A stretch of 13,070 bases of DNA. Origin: a bacterium (GTDB lineage Bacteria > Zixibacteria > MSB-5A5 > GN15 > FEB-12). Numbering within the stretch: the first letter of the stretch is position 1; every line of letters starts with the position of its first letter. The notes below the pieces were generated by a model. That model worked only from the letters and a program-made list of their open reading frames with translations. It ran no database searches and was not told where the DNA came from. Below are positions 1-13,070 of the stretch, one piece after another. The stretch is from NCBI GenBank assembly GCA_043811375.1, contig JBDRNJ010000066.1, positions 1 to 13,070 on the forward strand, in the 5' to 3' direction. The position numbers and the translations under genes are program-made.

Positions 1-30
1 AAGGTGTTGCACTTCGTTTGTGAAGCTAGG
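1..30 (-). mobile_element. IS30-family element terminal inverted repeat (probable left end of a minus-strand copy that continues beyond the window start)
   Basis: Reverse complement of 5-30 (CCTAGCTTCACAAACGAAGTGCAACA) matches 12931-12956 (GGTGGATTCACATTTGAAGTGCAACA) at 19/26 positions, including an 11-bp core GAAGTGCAACA. The 12931-12956 copy abuts an IS30 transposase C-terminus. The exact boundary is uncertain by about 2 bp. Confidence 0.75.
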
Positions 31-137
31 GAATCCAGTAACCTATTGATATATATAGTTTCCTGCTTACGCAGGAATGACAGAAAAAGCAAGGTAGTAA
101 CATTCATGTCTTTCATTCGGTGTTTTTCAACACCCTG
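31..137. mobile_element. Right half of a MITE-like element: GAATCCAG remnant, spacer, REP-like hairpin arm (60-81), 15-bp TIR (123-137), then CTAA (138-141)
   Basis: 123-137 TTTTTCAACACCCTG is the exact reverse complement of 12861-12875. The reverse complement of 60-81 (GTCATTCCTGCGTAAGCAGGAA) matches 12909-12930 at 21/22 positions. Confidence 0.75.
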
Positions 138-181
138 CTAAAGGTTTTATACCATTTCACTTTCATCAGTACAGAATTGTT

Positions 182-6763: not shown

Positions 6764-6784
6764 ATCACCTTTGTTTGAAGTTTT

Positions 6785-6811
6785 GTAGGTCGAAACCCCT
6801 GCGGTTTCGAC
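6785..6811 (+). repeat. GTAG-type REP-like hairpin between convergent genes
   Basis: GTAG-GTCGAAACC-CCTGC-GGTTTCGAC, a perfect 9-bp stem. A second, inverted copy lies at 7840-7866. Confidence 0.7.
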
Positions 6812-6824
6812 AGCAGCAAGCCAC

Positions 6825-7811
6825 TCACGCGAAACAGGTGAAATCCATATCGATTATCGGCGTCCGATTCTCTATTGATTCCCGCCGACCCTGCATGAAA
6901 CGTTCGCTCCACGGATTAAGATCGTCAATACCCTCTTTGTGCAACAGAATGTAGAGTATCAATTCACGCAGTTTCAGAAAATCCTGAAAGTGGTTCAGCC
7001 ACTGTGAGTCAAAACTGTTCTCTCGACCGTAACCTTCCAGCAGGCAGGACAAAAAACGTCGGGCGAAATCTGTTGTACCGCCTGACTTTGAGTCACGGTG
7101 GGCATAAAACAACGCCACCGCCAGATCGTCGGCAAACCAGTGGTAGTGACAATCAACGAAATCAAAAACGGTGATTGAGCCGTTGTGGACAACGAAGTTG
7201 CCGTGATGGACGTCTTCATGCACCAGCCCGTAACTGTCATTGTCGGTTGGCAGCACCCGCAGGCGATCCATTAGCTGATCGAAGCGGTCTCTGACCAGAA
7301 TCTGATCGGCGGGGAGGTGACGGTCGACTTTGAGATCTTCGTCTTTGTGCCACTGCTGTCGCCGGTACGAGGGATCAGCCGGTCGGTAGCTTTTCGTCAG
7401 GGCGTGCATGCGACCGATTACCTGACCCCAGGCTGCAAACAGACTGTCATTCCAGTCTTCTTCCCCGGGGTGATGCCCCCTGGCTTTCTCGAATGCGTAA
7501 GCGAGGAACCGGCCACTGTCAGCCTCGATCTCCTCGACGAAGTTGCCGGTTTCCGACGGCACCGCCCGTGCCACTGCCGCGCCGCCATCGGAGAGATGGT
7601 TGACAAAATCAAGTTCGCCCATTATGTACGCTGCTGTGCGGCGCAGGGTATGGGTTATCTTGAGGATATACTCCTGCCCGTTCTTTTCGTATTCGTAGAC
7701 ATAGCTTTCAAAGCTGCCCAGCTTCTTGATTTTATCCGGCGCGATACCGAAGCGTTTCATTGCATCGCCCAGGATGCGATCATTGTAGAGTTGTTGAATG
7801 GCTTTAATCAT
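6825..7811 (-). CDS. APH/choline-kinase-superfamily phosphotransferase, AmiN/YerI-like
   Basis: 328 aa. Brenner-type motif GLVHEDVHHGNF and FDFVDC. ILKITHTLRR, EKA.GH, DWND.LF, GRMH.LTKSY and RQ.W segments resemble Bacillus AmiN/YerI as recalled. Confidence 0.8.
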   Translation of the reverse strand: MIKAIQQLYNDRILGDAMKRFGIAPDKIKKLGSFESYVYEYEKNGQEYILKITHTLRRTAAYIMGELDFVNHLSDGGAAVARAVPSETGNFVEEIEADSGRFLAYAFEKARGHHPGEEDWNDSLFAAWGQVIGRMHALTKSYRPADPSYRRQQWHKDEDLKVDRHLPADQILVRDRFDQLMDRLRVLPTDNDSYGLVHEDVHHGNFVVHNGSITVFDFVDCHYHWFADDLAVALFYAHRDSKSGGTTDFARRFLSCLLEGYGRENSFDSQWLNHFQDFLKLRELILYILLHKEGIDDLNPWSERFMQGRRESIENRTPIIDMDFTCFA

Positions 7812-7839
7812 AGTGTCGCACTTATCTCACTCGAAAGAT

Positions 7840-7866
7840 GTCAAAGCCGCAGGGGTTTTGATCTAT
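7840..7866 (-). repeat. Second, inverted copy of the 6785-6811 REP-like hairpin
   Basis: Minus strand ATAGATCAAAACCCCTGCGGCTTTGAC matches GTAGGTCGAAACCCCTGCGGTTTCGAC at 22/27 positions. The CCTGC loop is identical and there is one compensatory G-C to A-T change in the stem. Confidence 0.65.
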
Positions 7867-7975
7867 AACTGCAAGGCCCCCCGATAATTGTCTTACAGGT
7901 AAAAGCGAACAGTTCATCGTACACGTGTCGAGTTTCTCGCAAGGGTGGCAATGCCAAACCCGAATGTGTCCCCCC

Positions 7976-12837: not shown

Positions 12838-12860
12838 GTTGCCGGAACTGCCGGACCTAA

Positions 12861-12930
12861 CAGGGTGTTGAAAAAGTGTTCTATCATGCTCAATTGCCAA
12901 CACACTTCGTCATTCCTGCGAAAGCAGGAA
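12861..12930. mobile_element. Left half of a MITE-like element: CTAA (12857-12860), 15-bp TIR (12861-12875), REP-like hairpin arm (12909-12930)
   Basis: CAGGGTGTTGAAAAA is a perfect inverted repeat of 123-137. The GTCATTCCTGC-GAAA-GCAGGAA hairpin stops exactly where the IS30 end begins. Confidence 0.75.
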
Positions 12931-13068
12931 GGTGGATTCACATTTGAAGTGCAACATGTTATTCCAAAATATCTCTGCTGGTGTTAGAAAGTCCAGACAT
13001 TTTCGTGGTGTGTTATTGTATGCCTGGATGAGTTCGAGGAAGCGATTGTCGGTGAGGGTGGCCAGGTC
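12910..13068 (-). CDS. IS30-family transposase, C-terminal 52 aa (gene enters from beyond the window end)
   Basis: Manual translation gives DLATLTDNRFLELIQAYNNTPRKCLDFLTPAEIFWNNMLHFKCESTFLLSQE*. This contains the IS30 C-terminal signature N-x-x-PRK-x-L-x-(F/Y)-x-TP-x-E. It is absent from the ORF track because it is partial. Confidence 0.85.
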   Translation of the reverse strand, partial: DLATLTDNRFLELIQAYNNTPRKCLDFLTPAEIFWNNMLHFKCESTFLLSQE

Positions 13069-13070
13069 GG
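12931..13070 (-). mobile_element. IS30-family insertion sequence, right end (IRR about 12931-12956)
   Basis: The transposase C-terminus overlaps a 26-bp imperfect inverted repeat of 5-30. Confidence 0.85.

Follow-up and report, generated by a model that had tools for sequence, protein, structure and literature searches.

A contig bounded by parts of two hairpin repeats of one type

Both ends of one bacterial contig coincide with ends of an insertion sequence, and at each the element abuts part of a short palindromic repeat. The locus raises the question of whether an IS30-family element selects one type of REP hairpin as its target and, if so, what sets the position of insertion. The window analysed here is contig C66 of the genome (G000) in full, a stretch of 13,070 nucleotides. 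Its relevant features are as follows.

1..30, minus strand: left end of an IS30-family element, with 100% identity to nucleotides 1-30 of the full copy at 37623-38656 of contig C64; the 26-bp left inverted repeat (IRL) lies at 5-30 and the IS copy runs off the contig start
31..38, plus strand: 3-bp target duplication (31-33), then the 3' remainder and tail of the split REP
60..81, minus strand: second REP of the dimer, in the opposite orientation, slightly decayed and untargeted
123..141, minus strand: cassette terminal inverted repeat (TIR, 123-137) and 4-bp flank CTAA (138-141)
12857..12875, plus strand: 4-bp flank CTAA (12857-12860) and opposite TIR (12861-12875) of another cassette copy
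12908..12930, plus strand: left 23 nucleotides of a CGTC-1/NTS REP (definition in PMC3733652 and PMC11893778)
12931..12956, plus strand: 26-bp right inverted repeat (IRR) of a second IS30 copy
12910..13070, minus strand: last 52 transposase codons (ORF 12910..13068), 92% identical to the full copy

Both contig ends are the ends of 1,034-bp IS30-family copies, and the window edges represent two different copies of the same element, about 12.9 kb apart. Copies of the targeting clade break assemblies, as they do at both contig ends here. An earlier note proposed that an IS30 lineage had become specialised for inserting into a REP-like hairpin. It placed the junctions correctly (IS end at 1-30 followed by GAA at 31-33; hairpin at 12909-12930 followed by the other IS end from 12931) and rightly read a single orientation from both IS ends. 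The note also considered that the ends might come from different elements; the element is the same, but the copies are separate. The hairpin that it rebuilt from the two edges therefore joins two insertion sites and is not one restored site, yet it is a valid model of the target, as judged from intact copies in the genome and a cassette on contig C72. At the right edge, the REP part comprises the tag, the left arm, the 4-nt loop and most of the right arm, with the duplicated GAA at 12928-12930 and 140 bases of the right IS end beyond it. A predicted transcript across 12908..12930 retains a 7-bp stem.

A single insertion position in this genome

All right-end junctions (9/9) and all left-end junctions (9/9) fall at the same position of a CGTC-1/NTS (dRS3-type) REP hairpin, and the register at window positions 31..38 is that of every left-end junction. 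With 18 of 18 junctions splitting a REP at one position, and the REP rebuildable from its parts, the genome displays the type 1 association by which REP-targeting IS are recognised (PMC1525189). The tabulation of junctions against empty repeats that the earlier note proposed thus bears out its main expectation: no flank is unrelated to the hairpin, and the existence of empty copies shows that the hairpin does not belong to the IS. A 22-nt rule for the left part of the REP fits 37 of 7,121,018 strand positions, of which 9 are occupied and 28 are empty; the rule was written after the junctions were known, and these numbers illustrate the rarity of the site and are not an independent hit rate. 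The intact hairpin has 25 exact matches to a degenerate pattern in the genome, and two dinucleotide-block shuffles yielded none at 0-1 mismatches.

The duplication is 3 bp long, as had been proposed, but GAA is not fixed, and the duplicated bases are whatever occupies nucleotides 20-22 of the repeat. The trinucleotides are GGA (four), GAA (three), GCA and GGG on the right-end side, and GAA (four), GGA (three), GCA and GGG on the left-end side. The rare GCA and GGG each occur once per side. The outer cassette flank ATAG is common to the two GGG halves, which gives a pairing independent of the trinucleotide. Some junctions form near-identical pairs (C14/C73 and C12/C66), the GAA and GGA counts differ by one between sides, and the flanks of the full copy on C64 (L001) do not match, being GAA and GGA. 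All three of these irregularities would be explained by recombination between IS copies or by assembly collapse.

The target repeat and its cassette

In the target hairpin, an unpaired tag (CGTC or TGTC) precedes an 8-bp stem with a 4-nt loop, and a CCA tail follows. Family CGTC-1 was defined by Di Nocera et al. (PMC3733652), and the NTS/SRM repeats are those of Chenal et al. (PMC11893778). We assign the target to family CGTC-1, which is equivalent to dRS3 of Neisseria and to NTS/SRM, on the basis of its defining sequence features. One of its stem pairs departs from the NTS consensus, with the change compensated. The repeat occurs in many copies, forms inverted REP dimers (at C72 and C74) and is associated with an SsnA-type gene. 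This gene, on C72, codes for a 96-aa GIY-YIG (SsnA-like) protein (L003 415-705, minus strand; 57.2 bits) and lies between two CGTC repeats, sharing the NTS-ssnA-NTS layout reported in PMC11893778.

Both window-edge hairpins sit in a 173-bp cassette that is bounded by TIRs and carries an inverted pair of REPs, a feature that the earlier note had missed. An empty 173-bp cassette (L002, C72:157881-158053) aligns with both window flanks. The first REP of the cassette takes 7 of the 9 insertions and the second takes none, and some IS copies may have spread along with the cassette. The two 4-bp flanks of the cassette are identical at C72, and likewise in the GGG pair. Three contig ends (C8, C80 and C89) carry an uncharacterised element that terminates in similar TIRs, but a full parent transposase was not recovered there. 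The cassette is MITE-like, and the candidate parent types are IS5 and IS1182.

An IS30-family element

The genome contains one full copy of the element, the 1,034-bp copy on C64, and 78 of the 80 relatives in the first set described below have the same length. The terminal inverted repeats are 26 bp long and imperfect (18-19 of 26 positions match; 19/26 for the window ends). Members of the IS30 family are about 1.0-1.2 kb in size and carry one ORF. The size, the inverted repeats and the short duplication (2-3 bp in the family) of this element are those of an IS30 member, as read from its sequence. The predicted transposase scores 246.6 bits against the IS30 model NF033563 (cut-off 80), with an HTH_38 domain at residues 5-47 and putative catalytic residues D180, D237 and E270. 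The family is recognised by an N-terminal helix-turn-helix and a D-(54-61)-D-(33)-E motif (PMC2516522), and both are present in the predicted protein.

An AlphaFold model of the transposase has a mean pLDDT of 89.5, with the last residues below 50. A fold search with this model returned only generic integrase-type folds, the best being retroviral integrases and IstA. One homologue with 81% identity carries a Zixibacteria name, which makes a Zixibacteria host probable, and none of the homologues found bore an ISfinder-style name. Residues diagnostic of the clade can be recognised in the transposase; they are phylogenetic markers and do not imply a role in targeting.

Register and orientation in relatives

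Relatives were chosen by protein similarity only, with their flanks disregarded. The first set was drawn from 564 confirmed stretches and consists of the best 80, which have 69-76% identity and come from 29 assemblies with the labels Chloroflexota, Nitrospirales, Binatia and Ignavibacteriales; all 80 have distinct flanks. In 69 of the 80 loci, the sequence GTCA occupies positions -22 to -19 relative to the right end, and the other 11 lack it there; it was found at an offset of ±1 in 0/80 and in reverse orientation in 0/80. A 3-bp duplication is present in 68 of the 80 loci, whereas 2 bp fits 5 and 4 bp fits none. Where the trinucleotide is not GAA, the duplication is present in 24 of 29 loci. 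Exceptions include two off-target insertions with intact duplications (L083 and L042). The flanks are mismatched in 12 of the 80 loci. There, as at L001, each flank derives from a separate repeat, which points either to recombination between IS copies, a form of genome rearrangement, or to assembly collapse.

The second set comprises 80 metagenome loci (53-65% identity), the best among 307 stretches near a 56%-identical relative, plus two loci from viral records. TCA occupies -21 in 76 of these 82 loci, and 46 carry the tag variant GCTCA. No TCA was found at offsets of 1-2, and none was reversed among 60 loci. The 3-bp duplication is present in 62 of 72. In the third set, GTCA is found at 31 of 41 anchors (2 of which are false anchors) and the duplication in 33 of 37. 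Additional Chloroflexota and same-phylum genomes show the same pattern.

In a placement-free scan, 154 of the 179 loci with at least 52% identity carried the motif beyond the end of the gene, as did 1 of 2 loci at 43-52%, the miss being L262, whose longer stem lies outside the pattern. The scan found the motif in 0/94 IS30 loci below 43% identity, a control weakened by the fact that many of these hosts may lack the repeat. Automatic end-finding gave counts of 78/87, 55/71 and 0/78, which are a rough check given that some ends were misplaced and 37 loci had no ends. Judged from these resident sequences, the targeting behaviour is real, strong and general. The specialisation proposed earlier therefore holds for this genome and for its relatives, although the target is not a narrow family but the CGTC/NTS super-family, with changed tags and longer stems included.

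One insertion (L378 667-690) has the usual register inside another hairpin, which is present as a single copy in that genome. This hairpin resembles a type I-E CRISPR repeat; a search for a CRISPR array beside it found none. The targeting clade is nearly absent from plasmid and viral records despite its spread over many phyla. The best plasmid match among 72,556 records has less than 60% identity, a result that fits a chromosomal target. Cultured carriers exist in Stappia and Pleomorphomonas.

Natural target variants and the setting of position

The sequences place copies of this IS30 clade in CGTC/NTS REPs, in a single register and orientation and flanked by a 3-bp duplication. We consider it likely that the transposase achieves this by reading the asymmetric 5' half of the repeat and cutting at a fixed distance from it. 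As expected for the family, transposition would yield a circular copy of the element in which the two ends are joined, and the DDE core would make a staggered cut in the target. Judging from the natural target variants, the binding site of the transposase would consist of the tag and the left arm, and the asymmetry of such a site would explain the single orientation. Position would be set as if by a ruler, with the duplication ending 22 nt from the G of GTC irrespective of the hairpin axis or the 3' tail.

This distance is kept where the hairpin closes 1 nt further (L181, L183, L184 and L255), where it closes 2 nt further (L262 only, with the duplicated bases changed accordingly) and where it closes 3 nt further (seven sites in one genome, G862). 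It is also kept, with the duplication intact, where the right arm is disrupted or lies further off because of an insert (L025/L040, L031, L037, L043 and L382). In the converse case, L049, the right arm is present and the tag is absent. Across the variants, the distance to the tag is constant, unlike the distances to the axis and the tail. These geometry classes come from 204 pooled anchors, which include a few left ends read in the wrong direction. The evidence for the clade consists of resident copies, and targets can mutate after insertion, which may blur single cases.

An alternative is that an extruded hairpin or cruciform is recognised, through its structure and some of its sequence, with the distance measured from the 5' foot. 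The stem is well preserved among the 80 targets of the first set (8 of 8 pairs in 51 and 7 of 8 in 13, hence 64 with 7-8 pairs), bases are conserved in both arms, and the empty REP dimer folds strongly (z -4.7). However, conservation of the arms is expected of any REP copy, and L025, L031, L037, L043, L060 and L382 have only 2-5 of the 8 pairs but the same tag distance and an intact duplication. We therefore regard recognition of the folded structure as unlikely.

Recruitment of the transposase, or nicking of the site, by a host REP-binding protein such as the SsnA GIY-YIG nuclease seems quite improbable. SsnA binds this class of repeat (PMC11893778), and the genome does carry its 96-aa GIY-YIG gene between two such repeats. 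The same report, however, has SsnA cutting single strands upstream of the repeat and not at the insertion site, and a clean 3-bp duplication fits a staggered cut by the transposase.

The chances seem slimmer still that the repeat mimics an IS end and is entered through the pathway by which IS30 targets its own inverted repeats. That pathway is orientation-specific (PMC9333248), and a 7-nt word is common to the reverse strand of the repeat and the tip of the IRR. The best ungapped match, though, is only 12/26 and places the tip outside the insertion point, the other three comparisons reach 9-10/26, and the products are plain insertions with duplications and not IR-IR junctions. With at most 12/26 identity and the wrong register, the comparison lends this route no support.

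We can give hardly any credence to unspecific insertion with survival only at a harmless, stop-supplying site, or to a hairpin that travels with the element: most members need the TGA of the repeat and 7 of the 9 copies here lie in near-identical cassettes, but 28 repeats in the genome are empty, both flanks vary in step (24 of 29 non-GAA duplications match), the register is exact to the base, members with their own stop (L261 and L262) occupy the same site, and any in-frame stop or other intergenic site would suffice for survival.

Reading of the asymmetric 5' half by the transposase is thus the account that we prefer. As for the circle that this account would include, no end-to-end joint was found among the contigs of four sequencing runs, a result that carries no weight, as contigs drop rare forms. 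None of the runs contains a fraction greater than 0.17 of the query words, and there is no RNA run among the matches listed.

A stop codon supplied by the target

The transposase reading frame has no stop inside the element. It crosses the IRR, continues through six codons read from the reverse strand of the REP and ends at the TGA of the tag; in the window, this stop codon occupies 12910-12912 on the minus strand, within the REP. The repeat-supplied stop had also been overlooked in the earlier note. In the first set of relatives, the stop lies six codons beyond the IRR in 68 of 80 loci. Among the best 120 matches in a protein collection, 101 end exactly six residues past the motif encoded by the IRR, 9 more (336 aa) have the same type of tail, 9 extend further and 1 terminates at the IS end. 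In such annotated transposases, the six C-terminal residues are host repeat sequence.

In more distant relatives, translation enters the inverted repeat in a different frame and stops within it. Two basal members with their own stop, L261 and L262 (46-50% identity; Stappia and Pleomorphomonas proteins), lie in repeats in the same register, the L261 record being without its left flank. L114, a third relative with its own stop, lies outside REPs. A quick tree made without bootstrap places all targeting rows in one branch (SH-aLRT 99), which also holds five proteins of unknown DNA context; the labels of L001 and L260 in this tree are wrong, in that both are shown as non-REP. Read-through types are mostly nested within the targeting branch.

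The stop codon was probably lost after targeting had arisen, and perhaps on more than one occasion; this order rests on the two sites L261 and L262. The tree suggests that a later frame change near the right end made the transposase gene dependent on its target for termination. The likely benefit of targeting would be a large supply of harmless intergenic sites common to many phyla, and the site would also provide a stop codon and a 3' hairpin. The clade would then exhibit a two-step path to target dependence, from targeting to loss of the stop codon.

Comparison with known systems

In IS30 of E. coli, an extra N-terminal helix-turn-helix is tied to the use of hot spots, whereas the transposase of the clade begins directly with HTH_38. 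The E. coli element uses circles and has a preference for nearly palindromic hot spots or its own ends, with 2-bp duplications (PMC9333248). The clade resembles it in its 26-bp inverted repeats, single DDE transposase, short duplication and marked target preference. It differs in that the duplication is 3 bp, lies off-centre in the REP and is made in one orientation.

Known REP-targeting elements include IS1397, ISKpn1 and ISPsy8 of the IS3 family, ISRm22 of IS4, and the IS110 members IS621, ISPa11, ISPpu9, ISPpu10 and ISRm19 (PMC1525189, PMC12288879). As in these elements, all or nearly all copies of the present clade split a REP at a fixed position. The IS110 members use a bridge RNA, whereas here one clade is paired with one repeat super-family across several phyla. 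A survey of REP targeting names the families IS3, IS110, IS4, IS256 and IS5, without IS30; for the IS30-family element IS1655, no more than 2 of 13 and 2 of 6 copies were close to REPs (PMC1525189). Likewise, the main texts of PMC3733652 and PMC11893778 do not contain the term IS30, and the CGTC survey found only 'a few fortuitous associations' with transposase genes (PMC3733652). Our literature searches returned no report of IS30 members targeting REPs; they covered main texts, outside the IS catalogues and the main IS reviews, and prior curation is possible. REP targeting as a mode is known in other IS families, and the target and geometry found here are apparently undescribed.

Termination supplied by flanking DNA also has precedents, among them IS1239 of Streptococcus pyogenes, a member of the IS30 family. 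In IS870 and ISMt1, the stop codon derives from the target CTAG, and in IS1239 the flank supplies termination after a 1-bp frameshift near the 3' end (PMC13630536). The transposases of the clade likewise end in flanking DNA. IS870, however, obtains its TAG from the 4-bp target itself, and IS1239 has variable tails at unspecific sites, whereas the stop of the clade lies 19-21 nt into a specific target and yields a constant tail of six residues.

These findings extend strict REP targeting to IS30. They also connect the CGTC/NTS repeats with a mobile element, where the founding survey saw no link to transposases (PMC3733652). We see an even chance that the broader interpretation is correct. The clade would be an undescribed, phylum-crossing IS30 subgroup in which a single DDE protein reads an asymmetric motif of about 16 bp and inserts at a fixed distance and in a fixed orientation, without a guide RNA, an adaptor or an extra targeting domain. 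With termination dependent on its target, it would be a dedicated parasite of CGTC/NTS repeats and a compact site-specific integrase. The natural target variants offer a sharp model of a plain DDE transposase that is both site- and orientation-specific, and a 330-aa enzyme with base-exact, one-way integration could serve genome engineering.

Other features of the window

Between 282 and 12832, the window contains ordinary genes. Pfam matches identify glmS, a TPR protein gene, a biotin-ligase-like gene and trmO; glmM, glyA, cutA and a set for a Na+-translocating decarboxylase are putative assignments made by reading the sequence. The idea that the contig is an excised circle found no support, as about 470 kb separates glmS from the biotin-ligase-like gene in the one relative that carries both. 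Downstream of glmS, the genes are not conserved.

A gene for an APH-family phosphotransferase (6825-7811, minus strand) is bracketed by 30-nt inverted palindromic repeats at 6783-6812 and 7839-7868. These repeats are of a different type from the CGTC REP, and the gene looks like a mobile cassette. Directly downstream of glmS, positions 182-251 form an inverted repeat with 27-nt arms. Similar words adjoin other IS junctions (C71), and this is likely a third repeat family.
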